Origin: Patescibacteria group bacterium
GTDB taxonomy: Bacteria > Omnitrophota > Gorgyraeia > Gygaellales > Profunditerraquicolaceae
NCBI GenBank assembly: GCA_035506195.1
Contig: DATJPV010000023.1
Coordinates: forward strand, 1,050-65,049
Direction: 5' to 3'
DNA length: 64,000 nt
Below, piece by piece: positions 1,424 to 57,587 of the stretch. The stretch's first letter is position 1. Every line of letters begins with the position of its first letter. Below the pieces are notes generated by a model. The model saw only the letters and a list, made by a program, of their open reading frames with translations. It made no database searches and was not told where the DNA came from. Made by a program: the position numbers and the translations under genes.

Positions 1424-4400
1424 TTAGGCTTTTTCCGCCGTCGTCAGCTCCTCTTCCTTGGGTTCATCTTTCTGCGCCTTTGCCTCCCTGACTAATTCGA
1501 TCTCGCGGTGCGTGCGAAAACCGGTCCCCGCCGGGATCAAGTGCCCGACGATAACGTTCTCTTTCAGGCCGAAAAGTTCGTCGCGCTTGCCTGAGGCAGC
1601 GGCATCGGTAAGTACGCGGGTAGTTTCCTGAAAGCTGGCCGCGGAAATGAAGCTTTCCGTGGTCAACGATGCTTTCGTAATACCCAATAACAGCGGCGTG
1701 GCCAACGCGGGTTTACCGCCTTTTTTAATAATCCGCAGGTTCTCCTTCTGAAATCTCCATTTATCTACCTGTTGGGTAGCCAGGAATTCCGTATCGCCCG
1801 CGTCTTCTATTTTTACTTTTTTAAGCATCTGCCTGATGATCAGCTCGATATGTTTGTCGTTGATGCGCACACCCTGCAGGCGGTATACTTCCTGCACCTC
1901 GTTGACCAGGTATTCCTGCAGGACCTTGTCGCCGCAGACCCTCAAGATATCCTGTAAAACTACCGGGCCGTCGGTGAGCTGCTGGCCGGCAACGACCTTA
2001 TCGCCTTTATAGACGTTGGGGTGCTTGCCGTGCGGAATCGCGTACTCTCTCTGCATGCCGGTGGGCGACTTGACGATAATAACGCGCTGCCCTTTCTTGG
2101 ACTCTCCGAATTCCACGAAACCATCGATTTCGCTGATGATCGCCGGGTCCTTGGGCCGACGCGCCTCGAACAACTCCGCCACGCGAGGAAGACCGCCGGT
2201 GATGTCCCTGGTCTTACCCACCAAGCGCGGAGTCTTGGCCAGAAGATCGCCGGCCTCAACCCGCTGCCCGTCCTTGACCAGGATGTGCGCGCCTATGGAA
2301 ATCGGATAAATACCCAGCACTTCTTCCTTATCATCCAGGATGAGTATCTGCGGATGGAATTCCTGTTTATGTTCGACCACTACGCGTTCGGTCAACTTGG
2401 TAACCGGGTTGAGCTCTTCGCGAATGGTTATCTCGTCTTTCAAATCTTCGTATTTCACCCGGCCGCCTACTTCGGTCAGAATGGGCGAGGTGTACGGATC
2501 CCAGCGGATGAACGCAATGCCCTTGGCCACCTCTTCCCCTTCGGGCAAGCTGATGAAGGAACCCTGCGGTACCGGATAACGCTCTAATTCCCTGCCTTGC
2601 TTATCATTGATACTGATGGACCCGTTCCTGTTCAGAACGACGAACTCTTTATTCTTGGCGGTAACGCGCAGGCCGTGGTACTTGATGACGCCTTTGTTCT
2701 TTGCCTTGATAAAGGATTGCGCAACGATTCTGGAAGCGGTACCGCCGATATGGAAGGTCCTCATGGTCAGCTGGGTCCCGGGTTCGCCGATGCTCTGTGC
2801 GGCGATGACACCGACCGATTCTCCTACCTCTACGATCCTTCCGGAACCTAAGTTCCTGCCGTAACATTTGCAACAGACGCCCCGGCCGGATTCACAGGTA
2901 AGGACGCTGCGGATACGTATCTTTTCTATGCCCAGCCTTTCGATCATCTCGGCTTTTTCTTCCGTAATCTCCGACCCCTGCTCGACAATGACGGTATCGG
3001 TAATAATGTCTACGATGTTATCCAGCGCGACCCTTCCGACGATGCGGTCCTTGAGACTGACCACCACTTCGTCGCCTTCGATGATCGCGGCTACGGTGAT
3101 GCCGTTAAGCGTGCCGCAGTCGTCTTCGACCACAATGACTTCCTGAGCTACGTCTACGAGCCTGCGGGTCAGGTAACCCGCATCTGCCGTCTTAAGCGCG
3201 GTATCAGCCAGACCTTTGCGTGCGCCGTGGGTAGAAATAAAATACTCCAACACCGTCAGCCCTTCGCGGAAATTTGCAGTAATGGGGTTTTCGATGATCT
3301 CGCCCGAAGGCTTGGCCATCAGACCGCGCATCCCTGCCAGCTGTCTTACCTGCAGGCGGGAACCTCGCGCGCCGGAGTCAGCCATCAAAAAGATCGGATT
3401 AAAAGGCTCCATCTCCTTGAAGAGAAGATCCGCAACGCGGTCGGTGGTATGCGTCCAGACGTCGATAACTTTATTATATCTTTCCCTGTCGGTAATGATG
3501 CCCCGGCGGTATTGTTCTTCGACCTTGGAGACCTCGGCCTTGGCTTCCTTTAAAACGTCGGCTTTGGCTGCGGGGATCTTCATATCGTCGATAGCAATGG
3601 ACATGCCGCCGTAGGTGGCAAACTGAAAACCTAATTTCTTGATATCATCTAAGAGCTCAATGGTACGGGTGTGGCCGAAGCGCTTATAACAATCCGCGAC
3701 AACCTCCCCGACCGTCTTTTTGTTCATTTCTTTGTTCACGAAACCGAATTCTTCCGGCAAGACCTGATTGAAGATCACCCGGCCGACAGTCGTCGTCACC
3801 ATCTGGCGTTCGTTACTGAGGTTTTTTTCCTCCAGGTCATATACCTTATACAACCGCAGGTTGATCTTTGCGTGCAGCTCGACTTCTTTATCTTCGTAGG
3901 CGATCAAAACCTCATCGGCGCCGCTGAAGGTCTTATTCTCCCCTTTGACGCCTGGTTTGATCTTGGTCAGATAGGAAACTCCGAGGATGATATCCTGCGT
4001 AGGGCTGACGATGGGGCGGCCATCGGCAGGAGAAAAAACGTTATTGCTGGCAAGCATCAGGATTTTTGCCTCCAGCTGAGACTCCAGCGAAAGCGGCACG
4101 TGTACGGCCATCTGATCGCCGTCGAAATCCGCGTTGAAGGCGGTACACACCAACGGATGGATCTTAATAGACTTTCCTTCGATCAGGACCGGCTGGAACG
4201 CCTGGATACCCAAACGGTGCAGGGTCGGAGCGCGGTTAAGCAGGACAGGATGGTCTTTAATGACTTCGTCCAGTATGTCCCAGACCTCGATCTTGCCGCG
4301 TTCCACCATGCGGCGCGCGCCCTTGATCGTATGCACGAAACCTTTTTCCCTTAACTTCTTGATGATGAACGGCTCGAACAGTTCCAGGGCCATCTGCTTA

Positions 4401-5491
4401 GGAAGGCCGCACTCATGCAACTTCAGATCCGGGCCGACCACAATAACGGAGCGCCCGGAATAATCCACGCGCTTACCCAGAAGATTCTGTCTGAAACGGC
4501 CCTGTTTGCCCTTAAGCATATCCGAAAGCGATTTTAGCGGCCGGTTATTCGCGCCCATGACCGCCCTGCCGTGCCTGCCGTTATCAAGCAGCGCATCCAC
4601 CGCTTCCTGGAGCATACGTTTTTCATTGCGGATAATGATCTCGGGGGCATTCAACTCCATCAGTTTCTTAAGGCGGTTATTACGGTTAATGACGCGGCGA
4701 TAGAGGTCATTGAGGTCGGAAGTGGCGAAGCGGCCTCCGTCCAGGGGGACCAGGGGCCTTAAATCCGGAGGTATCACCGGCAGGATCTCCAATACCATCC
4801 ATTCGGGCTTGTTGCCGGAAGCCTTGAAGTCTTCGATGATCTTCAAGGTCTTAAGGGCCTTGCGGTTGCCTAAGGCATCCTTGGATTTCTCCAGGTCGCG
4901 GCGCAATTTACGGCAGACGCTGTCAAACTCCAGCTCCTTGAGCATCTCCTGAACCGCTTCTGCTCCGATCTTTGCCTTGAAGTTTGCCCCGTATTTATTC
5001 AATGCCTCCTGGTATTTCTCTTCGTTTAAGAGCTCTCTCTTCTTGAGCGGCGTGTTGCCGGGGTCAACGACGACATACTCCTCGTAGTAAATCACTTTTT
5101 CCAGGTCCCGCAAGGTCATATCAAGCATCGCCGACAGGCGCGAAGGAACTGCCTTAAAAAACCAGATATGCGTAACCGGCGTTGCCAACTCGATATGGCC
5201 CATACGCTCGCGCCTGACCGAAGAGCGGTCCACGATCACCCCGCAGCGGTCGCAGGTGATGCCTTTGAACTTTATACCTTTATATTTACCGCAATTGCAT
5301 TCCCAGTCGCGCACCGGGCCGAAAATCTTTTCGCAGAACAATCCGTCCTTTTCGGGCTTGAGGGTACGGTAATTGATCGTCTCGGCCTTCTTGACTTCCC
5401 CCTTAGACCAGGATTTAATGATCTGGGAGGAGGCAATCTTGATCGCGATACTATCAAACAGGATTATTTCTTTAATCTCTTTTTCTTCCAT
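1424..5491 (-). CDS. rpoC: DNA-directed RNA polymerase subunit beta'
   Basis: 1355 aa; zinc-finger CNCGKYKG...[18 protein letters not shown] catalytic motif. Lies 12 nt upstream of rpsL. Confidence 0.97.
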
Positions 5492-11736: not shown

Positions 11737-11807
11737 CAGGAGCGGCAGGAGTCGAACCTGCAGTAACGGTTTTGGAGACCGTTGGTTTGCCATTAACCGA
11801 CGCTCCT
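11737..11807 (-). tRNA. trnW: tRNA-Trp (anticodon CCA)
   Basis: Reverse complement AGGAGCGTCGGTTAATGGCAAACCAACGGTCTCCAAAACCGTTACTGCAGGTTCGACTCCTGCCGCTCCTG folds as a cloverleaf with anticodon loop CT-CCA-AA and T-loop GGTTCGACTCC. Canonical position upstream of secE. CCA is not encoded. Confidence 0.9.
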
Positions 11808-12114: not shown

Positions 12115-12187
12115 AGCTGGAGACGGGAATTGAACCCGTGACCCCGTCCTTACCAAGGACGTGCTCTACCAACTGAGCTACTCCAGC
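12115..12187 (-). tRNA. trnT: tRNA-Thr (anticodon GGT)
   Basis: Reverse complement GCTGGAGTAGCTCAGTTGGTAGAGCACGTCCTTGGTAAGGACGGGGTCACGGGTTCAATTCCCGTCTCCAGCT. Anticodon loop TT-GGT-AA, 7-bp acceptor stem, no encoded CCA. Confidence 0.9.
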
Positions 12188-36951: not shown

Positions 36952-37024
36952 TGGAGCAGATGGGATTCGAACCCACGGCCTTCGCGATGCGAACGCGACG
37001 CTCTCCCAGCTGAGCTACTGCCCC
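36952..37024 (-). tRNA. trnA: tRNA-Ala (anticodon CGC)
   Basis: Reverse complement GGGGCAGTAGCTCAGCTGGGAGAGCGTCGCGTTCGCATCGCGAAGGCCGTGGGTTCGAATCCCATCTGCTCCA. G3:U70 Ala identity pair, anticodon loop TT-CGC-AT, no encoded CCA. Confidence 0.9.
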
Positions 37025-51796: not shown

Positions 51797-54589
51797 CTAG
51801 CCGTTCAATACCTTTTTCAGGAACACGGCGGTATAGGAATCACGGTTATCGAGTATTTCTTCGGGAGCCCCGCTTGCCACCACCTGCCCGCCCCTGTCTC
51901 CGCCCTCCGGCCCCAAGTCAATGAGATAGTCGGCGCATTTGACCACCTCCAGGTTATGCTCGATGACCACAACGGTATTGCCTTTATCCACCAGCCTCTG
52001 GAGTACCGACAAAAGCTTTTCCACATCGGCAAAATGCAAACCCGTGGTCGGTTCGTCTAAAATATAAAGCGTCTTGCCGGTGGCGCGCTTGCTCAGCTCC
52101 GCGGAAAGCTTGACCCGCTGGGCCTCGCCGCCGGAAAGAGTAGTGGCGGATTGCCCCAATTGCATATACCCCAGCCCTACGTCATAAAGCGTCATCAGCG
52201 TATTCCTGATGCCGGGGATGTTACTGAATAAACCCATCGCCTCTTCGATGGTCATCTCAAGAACGTCGGCGATGGACTTGCCTTTATAACAGACCTCAAG
52301 CGTCGCCTCGTTAAAGCGCCTGCCCTTGCAGATATCGCACTTGACGTAGACATCCGGCAGGAAATGCATCTCTATTTTTTTAATCCCGTCCCCGCCGCAG
52401 GCTTCGCAACGCCCGCCTTTGACATTGAAGGAAAACCTCCCCGGCTTGTAGCCGTGCATCCGCGCTTCCGGTATCTTGCTGAAGAGGTCCCTGATATGGC
52501 TGTATATGCCCGTGTAGGTAGCAGGGTTGGAGCGAGGGGTCCTGCCGATGGGAGATTGATCAACTTCAATGACCTTATCGATATATTCGGCGCCGACCAG
52601 CTTCTGGTAAAGGCCGGGCTTCTCTTTTGCTTTATACAATCTCTGCATAAGGCTGCGATACAGAATCTCATCGACCAGGGTGGATTTTCCCGACCCCGAG
52701 ACTCCCGTCACGCATACGAATACCCCCAGGGGAAACTTGACGTCGATATTCTTAAGATTATGTTCCCGCGCCCCCTTGATCTCCAGAACCTTCTTCTGGT
52801 CATGCGGCCTTCTCTGTGCCGGCACCGGGATACGCAATTGTTTCCTCAGGTACCGGGCAGTAAGCGACTGCTGATTCTGCAGCAGGTCCGCCCGGGAGCC
52901 CGCAAAGACCACTTCTCCGCCGTGCCTGCCGGCGCCAGGGCCTAAATCCACGATGAAATCCGCGGTCATGATGGTTGATTCATCGTGCTCCACTATGATC
53001 AACGTATTACCGAGGTCCCGCAGGGTCTTTAAAGTCTGGATAAGCTTGACGTTATCCCGGGGGTGCAGGCCGATACTAGGCTCATCGAGGATATACAGCA
53101 CCCCTACCAACCCGGACCCCACCTGCGTAGCCAGGCGTATCCGCTGCGCCTCTCCTCCGGAAAGCGTCGAGCTTCTCCTGTCGAGCGTCAAATAATCAAG
53201 CCCGACGTCGATACAGAATTGCAGGCGCTGTAAGATCTCCTTGAGCACCTGATGCGCGATGAGCTTCTGTTTCTCGGATAATGAAAGGCGGCCGAAAAAA
53301 TCACGCGCTTGTTTTATCGGCATCCGAGATGCCTCGTGGATATTCTTGCCGTTGACGGTCACGGCAAGGCTTTCTTTTTTGAGCCGCGCGCCGCCGCAGG
53401 TAGGGCAAGGAAGGCTCGACATGAACCTGGATATCTCTTCTTTCAGGTAATCGCTGTCGGTCTGGCGGAAGAGCCTTTCCAGGTGCGGTAGCACTCCTTC
53501 AAAAGGCTTACCCCCTACCTCAACGTCGGTACCGTACAGAATGGCCTTTTGCACCTGACGGCTCAGCTTTTTAAAAGGAGTATCCAGGTCAAAGCCCATC
53601 TGGTGCGCAAGCTCGCGGATAAGCCAGCGATAATACAGGATGTAGCCCTTACCTCCGCGCTTCCAGGCTTCGATCGCCCCCTCATTGATCGTCTTATTCT
53701 TATCCGGCACGATGAAATCCGGATCGAATTCAAGCTTAGTCCCCAAGCCGTGGCAGTCGGGGCAGGCCCCGTAGGGGGAATTGAACGAGAATATGCGGGG
53801 TTCGACTTCCGGGTAGCTGATGCCGCACTGGGCGCAGGCATATTGTTCGCTAAAAACCAGATCGCGCTCCCGGACGTGGACAATGACGATGCCCTTGCCT
53901 GTTTTTAGCGCCGTCTCAACGGAATCGGTAAGGCGCTTCTTGATCTCGGGTTTAATGCTTAAACGGTCGACAACGACCTCGATATTGTGGACCTTGTATT
54001 TCTGGAGCTTTATCTTATCCGGCAGCTCATATATGCGGCCATCGATGCGGCAGCGCACAAAGCCTGCCTTCTGGATCTGGTTCAATATATCCCGGTACTC
54101 CCCTTTCCTGCCCCGGACCAGCGGCGCCAAAACCTGGATATCGCTTGCCGGCGGTAATGCCATGATCCGTTCAACGATCTCCTGCACGCTCTGCCGCTCT
54201 ATGGGCTGGCCGCACCGGTAGCAGGCGATACTCCCAACGCGGGCGTAAAGGAGCCGCAGGTAATCGTAGATCTCCGTCTGCGTGGCCACGGTAGAGCGGG
54301 GATTGCCTCCGGCCGTCCTCTGCTCGATGGCGATTGCCGGCGACAGGCCCTCGATGTATTCGACGTCAGGCTTCTGCAGCTGCTCTAAAAACTGGCGCGC
54401 GTACGCCGACAGGCTTTCCACATAGCGCCTCTGCCCTTCGGCATAAATAGTATCAAAGGCAAGGCTGGATTTGCCGGAGCCGGAAAGTCCGGTAACGACA
54501 ATAAGCTTATTACGGGGCAGCTTCAGATTTATATTTTTGAGGTTGTGTTCTTTGGCGCCTTTTATGACTATATATTCTTCCATGTGCAA
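51797..54589 (-). CDS. uvrA: excinuclease ABC subunit A
   Basis: 930 aa. Two ABC modules ([20 protein letters not shown]) and zinc fingers (CPDC...CGG, CEAC...C). Confidence 0.96.
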
Positions 54590-54594
54590 AGGAT

Positions 54595-56418
54595 TTATGG
54601 TACGGCGTTCAATGCCTGCCAGGCCTTATCGGCGTTATCGTATTGTTTGAGCTTTTCATAGATCACCGCCAGGTTGTAGAGCGCCCGTCGGTCAGACGGG
54701 TCCAGCGCACGCGCAGCCTTCAACGCCCGCACTGCCTGAGGATAGACCTGTAATTTTCCGAAGGAGATGCCCGCAAGTATGTACATCTGGGGCGTAGGGC
54801 CGGCGGCGAGTTCCTTACCGATTATTCCCAGCGCCTGGCTGAATTCGCCTAAGCGCATGAGCGCAATGATCTCTTTCTCCTTCGGAGAGAATGCGGGGTC
54901 AAGCTCATCCTTGAAGACCTGCCCCTGTTCCTGCGCCAGAAGTTTCAGGCGGCGGTTGGCCTGCCAGTAAAAATAATCCCGCTCCAGCGCTGCCGCATAA
55001 GCCCGACGGGCCCGATCATACTGTTTCATCGCCCGATAAATATCCCCAAGCTGTATATAGGTGACCAGGTTTTCCGGTTCGCGCCGCGCCGACTGCCTGG
55101 CTTCGGCCAAGGCTTGCGCATAGAAGCCCCGCTGGGCCAAGGCAGATATTAAGAACGACCGGGTAATAAAGCTTACGGAGGGCTCCATCAGGGCCAGATT
55201 ACGGCGATAGAACGGAAGCTCCTGCCTCCAGCCACCGGCGTTGGCGAAGGTAGAAAACCCATACCCGCATACAAGGGCAGCCGACAGTATGAGCAGGACG
55301 GTCATGCTGCGTATCCGCAGGAGCAGGTATGCGGCTACCAGGAAAACCCCCCATGATGCCAGGTACACCCAATGCTCTTCGGCCGCCAGTGACCCCGGGA
55401 ATTTATACATAAATCTTATTAGATACGACAGCATCAGGATGAACCAGGTGATCCCGGTAAAGACCGCATACTTTCTTTTTTTAAAAGCGAAAATGGTTAT
55501 CGCCGTCAGCGCTACCGCTAGGACTACTGCCGCAAAGGCCCCAGCTGACCAGTATCCCGATACCGGCTTGATCATGCGCAATACATGCAGCCCCTGCGGA
55601 GCGATCAGGAGGCTGAGGTATTCGCGGATAACGCTCCAAAAATTAAGTACGTCTCGCCCGATCCCGTAGCCGCCCTGCGGGGCTATCCAGACGGGGACAA
55701 GCACGGTAAGCCGCAAGGTAATATAGAGGGCGAAAAGGCTGGCAAAGGATATGCAATGAGACACTAGCGACCCCCTCGGGACTTTCGCTTTCATCCCGAT
55801 ACAGGCGATATACAAAGGAATAAGCGCAAGGAAGCCCGCCTCCCGGGATAATAGCGCACAGGCAAAACTGGCCAGAGAAAGCAAGTAATATGTTTTCTTC
55901 GAAGAAGCCGCATATGCGCTATAGGATAGCAGGCTCAGCAAGACCCATACCGCCAACAGCAGTTCGCCGCGGTCGGCGATATAACAGACTGTCTCGGTAT
56001 GCAGGGGGTGTACGCAGAACAAAAGCGCGCTCAATAATGCCAGCGAAAAACTTGAAAACACGCGATACACAAGGGCAAACCCCAGGAACGTGACCAAGGC
56101 ATGAATAAGGACGTTCGTCAGATGGTAGCCTGCCGGATTCAGCTTCCAGATGTGGTATTCCAAGGCGTACGACAGGCTCATCAGGGGCCGGTAATATTTG
56201 TACCCTTCGTCGAATACGGAAAATTTGAACAGGTCGGTGGAAAAAAGCAGCGGCGCCTTATGCCAGTCTTTGATGAGCTCGTTCTGGACTATCAGGAATT
56301 TATCGTCGGCGACAAAGTCTCCGCGCAACACCTGGCAATACAGGACGACGGCGAGGAACAAAAAAAACAAAAAAATATAAATACCGGGTATGTTCTTTTT
56401 CATCTGTGTTAAAAACAC
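54595..56418 (-). CDS. TMTC-like polytopic membrane protein with C-terminal TPR repeats (GT39/PMT-related putative glycosyltransferase)
   Basis: 607 aa. About 11 TM in the N-terminal 400 aa ([17 protein letters not shown]...). The C-terminal ~180 aa hold 4-5 TPRs. The track start is GTG 56418, with an alternative ATG at 56403. Confidence 0.6.
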
Positions 56419-56458
56419 TGCCCTCTAACGATGAACCGCAGTACACAATTAGAGGGCA
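56419..56458 (-). terminator. hairpin (10-bp stem, 20-nt loop) followed by a T-tract between the mini-protein gene and the TMTC-like gene
   Basis: TGCCCTCTAA ...20 nt... TTAGAGGGCA, then GTGTTTTTAACAC on the minus strand. It abuts the TMTC-like start codon. Possible terminator or attenuator. Confidence 0.4.
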
Positions 56459-56478
56459 GGATTTTCTACCTTACTGTC

Positions 56479-56730
56479 TTATCTCTTTTTCTTTTTGCCG
56501 CCTCTTTTCATCTTGGCGCAGGACACGTCGCCTTTTTTGTCGATGAAATAGAGATAGCCCTCTTTCCTCTTGATGCCTAACTTCACGAGTTTTTTAGGGC
56601 TGCCGCCTTTTTTGCCGGCTCTGGCCATCTTGGCGCAGGACACGTCGCCCTGCTTATCAAGATAGTAAAGATACCCCTTTTCTCTCTTGACACCTGCCTT
56701 CGCTACTTTCTCTGCCATGTTATTCTTCAC
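56479..56730 (-). CDS. small basic protein built from two tandem ~35-aa repeats (hypothetical)
   Basis: 83 aa. Repeats AGVKREKGYLYYLDKQGDVSCAKMARAGKKGG / LGIKRKEGYLYFIDKKGDVSCAKMKRGGKKKK. The DNA repeat CATCTTGGCGCAGGACACGTCGCC occurs twice, about 107 nt apart. Strong SD GGAGGTGAAGAATAAC-ATG. Confidence 0.6.
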   Translation of the reverse strand: MKNNMAEKVAKAGVKREKGYLYYLDKQGDVSCAKMARAGKKGGSPKKLVKLGIKRKEGYLYFIDKKGDVSCAKMKRGGKKKKR

Positions 56731-56759
56731 CTCCTTCCCTCACTTGTTTAGTGACACGT

Positions 56760-57587
56760 CTATGTTCCGATATGCAACGGATACGCAATCTGCCTGACGC
56801 AGGCGATTGCCGATAAAACCGCCAGATAACTGGTTTTAGGATTAGCGGGATGAATGACATTTTCAGTCCGTACCGTCATCGTGCCGGCATCGGATTCTAT
56901 ATCTATCTGGTGGGTATTTTTAGATACCCTCGGCGAAGCAACGATGCGCACCCTGGTCTTGGCCGGCCCGATACCGGCGATACTCAAAATCGCAGCCACG
57001 TTGATATTCTGCGGGAAAGCTTTTATGGCGGCGTTGGCGCTGCCCTCGAAGAGCACGGCATCTTTCTTGATAGCTGCCAGGTCGATACGGGCACTGTGCA
57101 CATAGGCTACGCCGCGGAATGCCCGCGGCGGTTTTGTCGTAGTCAGGGTGACCTTTTTTATCTTGCCGCAGGCGCAGGCCTTCAGGCCGTCAAGGCCGCA
57201 TACCGCCCCCGAAGGGATAAAGATGCGGCATCCGCGCTCCTGCGCTAAGGCAATCAGTTCTTTATAGCCCTCGATGATCCCGCCGACGCTCATGATCATG
57301 ATATCGCGCGATGCGCGCAGCGTTTTTTCGGCAATGGCATACGCCGCACCGGCAGCAGCTGCTTCAATGATCAGATCCGAACGCGCAATCAGCGCCTCCA
57401 GGCTTGCTACCGCAAGCCTGCTCCTGCCGCAGGCCTTCGCCAGGAGAGCGGCCCTTGCGTTGTCCGTATCGTACACACCGCATAGCGCCCCTCGCGCAGG
57501 AAAGTATTCGGCGATATATTTTGCCAGCGAAGAACCGATAGCGCCGCATCCTGCTATTCCTATCTTTATTGTGCAGGCTCCCCTCAC
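56760..57587 (-). CDS. nadX: L-aspartate dehydrogenase
   Basis: 275 aa. N-terminal Rossmann IGIAGCGAIGS and NadX/DUF108-like C-terminal region. Confidence 0.7.
   Translation of the reverse strand: MRGACTIKIGIAGCGAIGSSLAKYIAEYFPARGALCGVYDTDNARAALLAKACGRSRLAVASLEALIARSDLIIEAAAAGAAYAIAEKTLRASRDIMIMSVGGIIEGYKELIALAQERGCRIFIPSGAVCGLDGLKACACGKIKKVTLTTTKPPRAFRGVAYVHSARIDLAAIKKDAVLFEGSANAAIKAFPQNINVAAILSIAGIGPAKTRVRIVASPRVSKNTHQIDIESDAGTMTVRTENVIHPANPKTSYLAVLSAIACVRQIAYPLHIGT

Follow-up and report, generated by a model that had tools for sequence, protein, structure and literature searches.

What does the short, strongly basic and internally duplicated protein encoded in this stretch of DNA do in the cell, and does it belong to any family already described? 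The stretch, called the window below, comprises 64,000 nucleotides of contig DATJPV010000023.1 (assembly GCA_035506195.1); the protein, here termed the mini-protein, is encoded on its minus strand at 56479-56718 and is identical to the public protein P0001 (VMD52_03125) of a metagenome-assembled genome (MAG) labelled 'Patescibacteria group bacterium'. The analysis presented here shows that the gene is real, translated and under strongly purifying selection, and that the mini-protein is a new family: no curated family, solved structure or paper describes it in the searches made. As to its role, the reading that we favour, at a probability of about 0.45, is that of an abundant nucleic-acid-binding architectural protein of nucleoid or chromatin-like character, with DNA a likelier ligand than RNA.

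A conserved gene under purifying selection

A single open reading frame (ORF) occupies the region 56400-56800, on the minus strand, and was entered in the ORF list as 56479-56730, with a GTG start and 83 amino acids (aa). The listed GTG falls within the Shine-Dalgarno sequence, the coding strand reading GGAGGTGA-AGAATAAC-ATG. Because of this position, and because GGAGGTGA (56727-56734, minus strand, read directly from the sequence) with its 8-nt spacer points there, we place the start at the ATG at 56718-56716, which together with the stop TAA at 56481-56479 yields a product of 79 aa, MAEKVAKAGVKREKGYLYYLDKQGDVSCAKMARAGKKGGSPKKLVKLGIKRKEGYLYFIDKKGDVSCAKMKRGGKKKKR; MAEKV or MAQKV forms the N-terminus in all 22 of the aligned homologues. 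Thus the ORF of an earlier reading of the window, made by a model from the letters and the ORF list (the sequence-only reading), is real, if four residues shorter than the 83 aa then given, and the strong Shine-Dalgarno with 8-nt spacing that it described is present. Its further claim of a hairpin and T-tract 3' of the gene is borne out by an intrinsic-terminator-like structure at 56408-56466 (minus strand), whose arms (56449-56465 and 56412-56428) are followed by a T-run at 56415-56411. This structure coincides with an inverted repeat (I1) with 17-nt arms of 88% complementarity, after which the coding strand reads TGTTTTT, and its predicted RNA fold has a free energy of -30.5 kcal/mol (z -5.4), with none of 200 shuffled sequences as stable. 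A loop longer than 8 nt accounts for its having been missed by a simple terminator scan.

Both signals recur across orthologues. A box of the AAGG[AG]GGTGA or GG[AG]GGTGA type stands a few nt 5' of the ATG in nearly all of 70 Omnitrophota loci when these are read by eye (33 of the 70 with a narrower scripted pattern), and a hairpin with a T-run lies within 110 nt 3' of the stop in 46 of ~69 orthologous loci. A search of 5.8 billion proteins recovered 3395 homologues at E <= 0.01, so that the absence of homologues which, according to the sequence-only reading, would have counted against its interpretation does not obtain. The best 120 of these are all 77-87 aa long, 78-100% identical and devoid of any Pfam domain, and those bearing a name are 'hypothetical protein' entries from Omnitrophota MAGs; a JGI label, '20S proteasome alpha/beta subunit', is the sole exception among the naming sources. 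Searching 1.84 billion representatives of clusters (formed at 50% identity) with a profile retrieved 1005 clusters at E <= 0.001. Relatives are encoded in at least 548 GTDB species genomes (one genome scanned per species), a count that is not split by phylum and may include some non-Omnitrophota, the best 80 loci being nearly all from Omnitrophota or with Omnitrophota synteny. Since GTDB R232 holds ~700 Omnitrophota species (2026 preprint), the mini-protein is probably near-universal in this phylum.

The coding sequences themselves carry the signature of selection on the protein. Across 71 of them synonymous sites are saturated, the median proportion of differing synonymous sites (pS) being 0.81 as against 0.17 for nonsynonymous sites (pN), codon position 3 holds 62% of the differences, and dN/dS, taken from unsaturated pairs only, is ~0.07. 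Mean column identity reaches ~84%, compared with ~70% for UvrA, encoded by its usual 3' neighbour. The codon pattern, the Shine-Dalgarno and the terminator thus uphold the view that this is a genuine, well-signalled coding gene. That it might instead be a chance ORF or a repeat-derived artefact could be suggested by its shortness, its Lys-rich low-complexity segments and the want of an annotated family; the thousands of homologues of the same length, the saturated synonymous change with its low dN/dS, the conservation of start, Shine-Dalgarno and terminator, and a confident fold prediction (see below) exclude a non-gene reading for all practical purposes.

Two blade-like units in one chain

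The mini-protein consists of two tandem repeats with a period of 39 aa, which have 23 of 38 residues in common. Repeat 1, KVAKAGVKREKGYLYYLDKQGDVSCAKMARAGKK (residues ~4-37; 56609-56709, minus strand), and repeat 2, KLVKLGIKRKEGYLYFIDKKGDVSCAKMKRGGKK, which is followed by a Lys-rich C-terminal tail (residues ~43-76; 56492-56592, minus strand), are also recovered as the two copies of a direct repeat (D1) of 101 nt with 75% identity and a spacing of 117 nt, repeat 2 providing the reference copy. An exact 24-mer at 56509-56532 recurs at 56626-56649, 117 nt (39 codons) from start to start, and no shuffled sequence gave two copies. The sequence-only reading had written the repeat motif correctly and had rightly seen the duplication at the DNA level, with its spacing put at ~107 instead of 117 nt and its repeat length at ~35 instead of 39 aa. 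In-register exact runs of at least 24 nt occur in ~10% of the orthologous genes, as opposed to 0.6% of cross-gene comparisons; such inter-repeat runs may reflect occasional intragenic gene conversion or merely genome-specific codon bias.

Structure prediction with AlphaFold2 on an alignment of 59 diverse sequences gave a confident model, with a predicted local distance difference test (pLDDT) score of 89.5, a predicted template modelling (pTM) score of 0.71 and all five models at 85-89; from a shallower alignment came models of the same topology that agreed less well with one another. Six strands are predicted (3-6, 16-20 and 26-30 in repeat 1; 42-45, 55-59 and 65-69 in repeat 2), so that each repeat forms a three-stranded meander, repeat 1 being a strand-turn-strand-turn-strand unit, and the two meanders are joined in the model by a conserved M-A-R-G-G-K-K-G-G linker. 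The beta-hairpin character surmised from the letters agrees with this model, as does its statement that the repeat is no named domain with the outcome of the family scans: Pfam, NCBIfam, PHROGs and PADLOC gave nothing above threshold for the mini-protein, a PDB sequence search with the single protein returned noise only, and the best Foldseek match against the PDB had an E-value of 0.86. The predicted fold, as modelled, hence matches no solved fold.

A weak but coherent signal does emerge from the family profile. Searched against PDB sequences, it matches at E < 0.02 only YWTD propellers (LRP6 at 0.0017-0.008, LRP2 at ~0.01), aligning 'kvGvkkekGyLyfvdkkGdvsrakmargg' with 'PVGLTVFENWLYWIDKQQQmIEKIDMTgREG' of LRP6, with no single stretch significant even at the best E-value of 0.0017. 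Among sub-threshold Pfam matches the commonest is DUF5050 (PF16472), a propeller-like family of seven blades (35 of 59 members, best E 0.0039), the window protein scoring 13.5 bits (E 0.041) against a gathering cut-off of 27 bits. Ldl_recept_b was absent both from the matches of the window protein (hmmscan against Pfam, E up to 10) and from the top families of the sets of 33 and 59 relatives. Like YWTD, DUF5050 and TolB-like blades, the repeat spans ~40 aa, and the blade motif G-x-L-Y-[WFY]-x-D ... [IV]-x-R-A-x-[LM]-x-G can be followed from GYLY[YF][IL]DK-GDVS[CR]AKM-RGG into the LRP6 blades, an alignment that could also have arisen by convergence on a beta-hairpin motif. Unlike those propellers, with their four-stranded blades closed into a ring of six in the YWTD case, the mini-protein has two repeats per chain with three strands each in the model, is cytoplasmic with no signal peptide evident in its sequence, is extremely basic, scores below every family threshold and offers no evidence of ring closure. 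On these weak, coherent matches each 39-residue repeat resembles a truncated propeller blade, and we assign the protein to no propeller family; as regards fold, a distant and truncated kinship with propeller blades is the most that can be claimed. The sequence-only reading had mentioned neither this resemblance nor the distribution across domains described below.

Other known repeats and small proteins fit less well. The lectin RSL of Ralstonia is a two-blade propeller fragment that oligomerises; compared with it and with the BamB-like 2yms, the mini-protein lacks the sugar-binding Trp motifs, carries +19 per chain and shows only very weak similarity. Choline-binding or cell-wall-binding repeats (CW_binding_1, Choline_bind), which are secreted ~20-aa GW-x-YYF-D-x-G hairpins, were considered and rejected: one of 33 relatives touches Choline_bind_2 (E 0.037), the best choline-binding protein in the PDB has an E-value of 1.5, and the mini-protein has its 39-aa period and no signal peptide to be seen. 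Membership of HU/IHF (Bac_DNA_binding) or another named DNA-binding family found no Pfam, NCBIfam or PDB sequence match, and the SH3-like five-stranded barrel of Sul7d and Cren7 is not seen in the mini-protein. The phage family phrog_9154 (70 aa, of unknown function) gave a weak single-repeat match in all four members tested (E 0.00045-0.028); as it is below significance, covers a single repeat and has no known function, it adds no functional information. A full-text literature search for the motif and for chromatin proteins of Omnitrophota or DPANN found no description of the mini-protein.

The relatives indicate that the pair of repeats is the unit that is reused. Of the best 150 of the 1005 cluster representatives, 91 stand alone, with lengths of <=110 aa, and 39 are longer than 150 aa. 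These long members nearly always carry the motif as a pair, ~39-41 residues apart and at either terminus, and eight of the 39 have predicted transmembrane segments. The fusions include OmpA (P0152, 2e-16), DoxX (P0235, 1e-19), a combination of zinc ribbons, GAF and prokaryotic RING (P0177), and a region of P0156 (residues ~104-212) that matches the candidate defence family PDC-S18 of PADLOC at E 2e-12 and in which a PD-(D/E)xK-like, nuclease-like motif can be seen by eye. P0132 has an H1-like AKKK tail, and P0123 has six repeats, that is, three pairs, the multi-pair proteins having long acidic linkers between pairs. Ten fusion partners had no match in NCBIfam, and P0156 had none among PDB sequences. 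Its reuse in proteins with several pairs and in fusions shows the repeat pair to be an autonomous domain. This autonomy argues against one closed propeller within a chain and is compatible with assembly between chains.

Each repeat has one Cys at the same position, Cys28 (56635-56637) and Cys67 (56518-56520). The pair is Cys/Cys in 96 of 118 Omnitrophota sequences and Arg/Arg in 89 of 120 archaeal ones; Arg/Arg is also the state of most other clusters, some Omnitrophota have Ala or Ser in place of Cys, and the two positions tend to change together. Since Cys gives way to Arg outside Omnitrophota, a metal site or disulphide is not a feature of the family. A zinc-ribbon or other metal-binding mini-protein was likewise discarded, the protein having two non-conserved Cys residues only and no four-Cys/His ligand set.

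Gene neighbourhoods in Omnitrophota and DPANN archaea

Omnitrophota keep the gene within a fixed string of genes on one strand, aminotransferase-folK-panC-nadX-mini-protein-terminator-uvrA, with the neighbours named by Pfam. Over the best 80 loci nadX is the 5' neighbour in 73 and uvrA the 3' neighbour in 63, and panC is present in 69, folK in 66 and the aminotransferase in 64. In the window the aspartate dehydrogenase-like nadX (56760-57587, minus strand; Asp_DH_C 7e-31) ends with its stop 41 nt before the mini-protein ATG, and uvrA (51797-54589, minus strand; UvrA_inter, UvrA_DNA-bind) is split off by a gene for a multi-pass membrane protein containing tetratricopeptide repeats (TPR) and resembling TMTC (54595-56403, minus strand). 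This TPR/TMTC-like gene is found in 13 of the 80 loci, uvrA directly following the mini-protein gene elsewhere, and it therefore looks like a lineage-specific, occasional insertion into the conserved string. Of the two neighbours that the sequence-only reading had proposed for a synteny search, nadX proves a steady companion and the TMTC-like gene an inconstant one, with uvrA the constant 3' neighbour instead. The gap between the preceding gene and the mini-protein gene has a median of 37 nt, and a sigma-70-like promoter pattern occurs in it in eight of 70 loci; nadX and the mini-protein gene are probably co-transcribed, the latter closing the upstream operon as its last cistron, with the terminator probably insulating uvrA from it. 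A functional coupling to uvrA through co-transcription, which we had considered, is weakened by the terminator between the two genes.

A UvrA identity of 70-77%, together with the synteny, assigns the window to Omnitrophota. Several relatives that share this synteny also turn up in MAGs labelled Planctomycetia, Nitrospirae, Deltaproteobacteria, Halanaerobiales, Babeliaceae and Woesearchaeota (L072); these oddly labelled MAGs are probably mislabelled or mis-binned. At the gathering threshold, Rfam matches nothing in the 64-kb window but three tRNA genes (11737-11807, 12115-12187 and 36952-37024, all on the minus strand).

DPANN archaea carry a widespread sister branch of the Omnitrophota family. 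A search with P0128, a member of the 1005 clusters from a Woesearchaeota MAG, added 1791 proteins, and nearly all named matches belong to MAGs of Woesearchaeota, Nanoarchaeota or Anstonellales. Their surroundings are truly archaeal, rpL34e, TrmB, SAMP2 and ScpB being close by. The archaeal members are 57-75% identical to the window protein, unusually high for a comparison across domains, and to judge from the sequences this would imply a very conserved partner. Of 69 loci with archaeal orthologues, 64 have an SD-like box (SD, Shine-Dalgarno) and 36 have a TATA-like hexamer 25-75 nt 5' of the ATG, this hexamer reading TTTATATA in many loci at ~-65 to -75; these signals are compatible with independent, strong expression.

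A Pfam-confirmed DNA-metabolism gene is found no more than two genes away in 23 of these 69 archaeal-type loci, about a third, and in at least five arrangements: HerA in ten, Mre11-like phosphoesterase in two, Hef in three, OB-fold/RPA-like in five and DNA methylase in five. HerA-like ATPase and Mre11-like phosphoesterase genes adjoin the orthologue or lie within two genes of it in Woesearchaeota/Nanoarchaeota-type loci, in two orientations, and Hef, OB-fold/RPA-like or DNA methylase genes are adjacent in other archaeal-type loci (the loci concerned being L084-L086, L096, L099, L102, L104, L109, L123, L142 and L163). A UvrA-like gene within two genes in one further locus probably marks an Omnitrophota locus caught by the archaeal query. 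Beyond the two main branches, a search for a third lineage with P0201 gave only six matches, one of them lying near Mur ligase, ClpB and integrase genes in a bacterial setting unlike the others. Only eight IMG/VR contigs carry relatives, and the gene is therefore not a typical viral gene; one of these, the 103-kb predicted viral contig L087, encodes a two-repeat relative at 3983-4234 with a neighbouring ORF that resembles a DNA methyltransferase by sequence. The annotated phage and plasmid collections held no relative.

Candidate roles of the mini-protein

Three lines of evidence lead us to prefer nucleic-acid binding: the charge, the tails of some orthologues and the DNA-repair neighbours (uvrA in Omnitrophota; HerA/Mre11-like, Hef and RPA-like genes in archaea). 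The net charge is +19, with 33% Lys plus Arg, to be compared with +6 for Sso7d, +7 for Cren7 and +4 for Escherichia coli HU. AKKK/TKKK extensions of 15-35 residues form the C-terminus of several archaeal orthologues and of ~12 of the 70 from Omnitrophota (for instance in L046, L067, L048, L031, L035, L008 and L064, at ~5200-5320 in each locus). Tails of this kind characterise histone H1 and recur, as H1-like tails, on bacterial nucleoid proteins, among them actinobacterial HupB and chlamydial Hc1 with their Lys/Ala-rich tails. The resemblance to HupB and Hc1 ends there, the core of the mini-protein being unrelated to HU or Hc1 and most members having a short KKKK tail only. As functional analogues we propose the monomeric DNA binders Sul7d (Sso7d/Sac7d) and Cren7 of Crenarchaeota, which are likewise small (60-80 aa), basic, all or mostly beta, and encoded by stand-alone genes with strong expression signals. 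Unlike them, the mini-protein is internally duplicated, has about three times the net charge, occurs in Omnitrophota and DPANN and shows no sequence similarity to them. By likely function, then, it is a variant of the small basic architectural proteins.

In the mechanism that we envisage, the mini-protein would be a small, abundant, cytoplasmic and polycationic all-beta protein of two tandem 39-residue units, each a three-stranded meander like a truncated propeller blade followed by a Gly/Lys-rich linker or tail. Its ligand would be a polyanionic nucleic acid, most probably chromosomal DNA, and its role architectural. The two pseudo-symmetric sheets would offer conserved surfaces of Tyr and Lys/Arg, with a predicted binding face, drawn from the alternation pattern of the strands only, made of the Tyr of strand 2 and the Lys and Arg/Cys of strand 3 on the exposed side. 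The linker and tail, being rich in Lys, would counter the charge of the phosphates, and the two equivalent units, possibly together with self-association, might permit bridging or coating of the nucleic acid.

Several observations weigh against this proposal. The synteny with uvrA is a single inherited arrangement, and a terminator stands between both genes; the Omnitrophota gene seems to be the tail of a cofactor-biosynthesis operon, unlike the single-gene units typical of nucleoid proteins. Most archaeal neighbours are unrelated to DNA (GTPase, Dph2, DUF1385, CPBP protease), and the 23 of 69 loci with DNA-metabolism genes have no background rate behind them. At the equivalent position of each repeat most Omnitrophota have Cys where a face that binds nucleic acid would be expected to have Arg, and the nearest likeness in sequence and structure is to propeller blades, which usually bind proteins or ligands. 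High abundance would follow from translation signals only, and we infer both the binding of nucleic acid and the preference for DNA over RNA.

A minority possibility is that the polyanion is RNA, the mini-protein binding rRNA or other RNA as a lineage-specific ribosomal, ribosome-hibernation or RNA-chaperone protein. Small ribosomal proteins typically share its size, extreme basicity, Lys-rich termini and very high conservation, the cross-domain identity fits a partner as conserved as rRNA, the Shine-Dalgarno is strong, and in six archaeal loci a GTPase with a '50S ribosome-binding GTPase' domain lies immediately 3'. The gene is, however, never inside ribosomal-protein operons in the loci examined, its patchy distribution (Omnitrophota, DPANN and a few others) would be odd for a ribosomal component, and the membrane-tethered and nuclease-like fusions together with the H1-like tails suit DNA better. 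We think it unlikely, too, that the blade-like repeats serve mainly to oligomerise into a closed ring, for example a trimer with six blades as in RSL, that would act as a scaffold or ligand platform with the basic loops secondary. That the profile meets only YWTD propellers in the PDB below E 0.02, that DUF5050 is the commonest sub-threshold match, that the 39-aa period equals a blade length and that P0123 has exactly six repeats all speak for such a ring. Yet the repeats have three strands, not four, the pairs are split by long acidic or low-complexity linkers and the repeat numbers (2, 3, 4, 6 and ~7-9) suggest beads on a string, and a trimer would carry a charge of ~+57 without a counter-ion.

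Binding to a membrane surface, which the sequence-only reading had offered as an alternative to nucleic acid, would have the cationic sheets and tails lie on anionic phospholipid head groups at the cytoplasmic face, and we hold it to be quite improbable. The cationic and aromatic composition, the transmembrane segments of some long relatives and the OmpA and DoxX fusions could be taken in its favour, but these same fusions make a separate membrane role less likely, as a module already tethered by transmembrane helices hardly needs membrane binding of its own. In addition, there is no amphipathic helix or lipid-binding motif, a mean column identity of 84% is hard to square with non-specific lipid binding, and the DNA-repair neighbourhoods and H1-like tails point elsewhere. 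A bolder version of the nucleic-acid-binding proposal, of which we are doubtful, would make the mini-protein a major chromatin or nucleoid family common to ultra-small Omnitrophota and DPANN, for which the 57-75% identity would imply inter-domain transfer and a common conserved target, with truncated blades possibly assembling on DNA as basic rings or filaments.

Both Omnitrophota and DPANN archaea comprise abundant organisms of nanometre scale, mostly uncultured, and their basic cell biology is largely inferred from annotation. Against this background a protein more conserved than UvrA, found in no fewer than 548 GTDB species genomes as well as thousands of metagenomic clusters, is a conspicuous annotation gap. 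Should it prove to be a nucleoid or chromatin protein, the picture of genome packaging in both lineages would change and a new DNA-binding fold would be added, and a chromatin family built on truncated blades would be a DNA-binding architecture without solved precedent. If it is instead a self-assembling two-blade unit, it would show in nature the kind of propeller-fragment intermediate that has been proposed for the evolution of repeat proteins. Either way, the mini-protein merits definition as a family.

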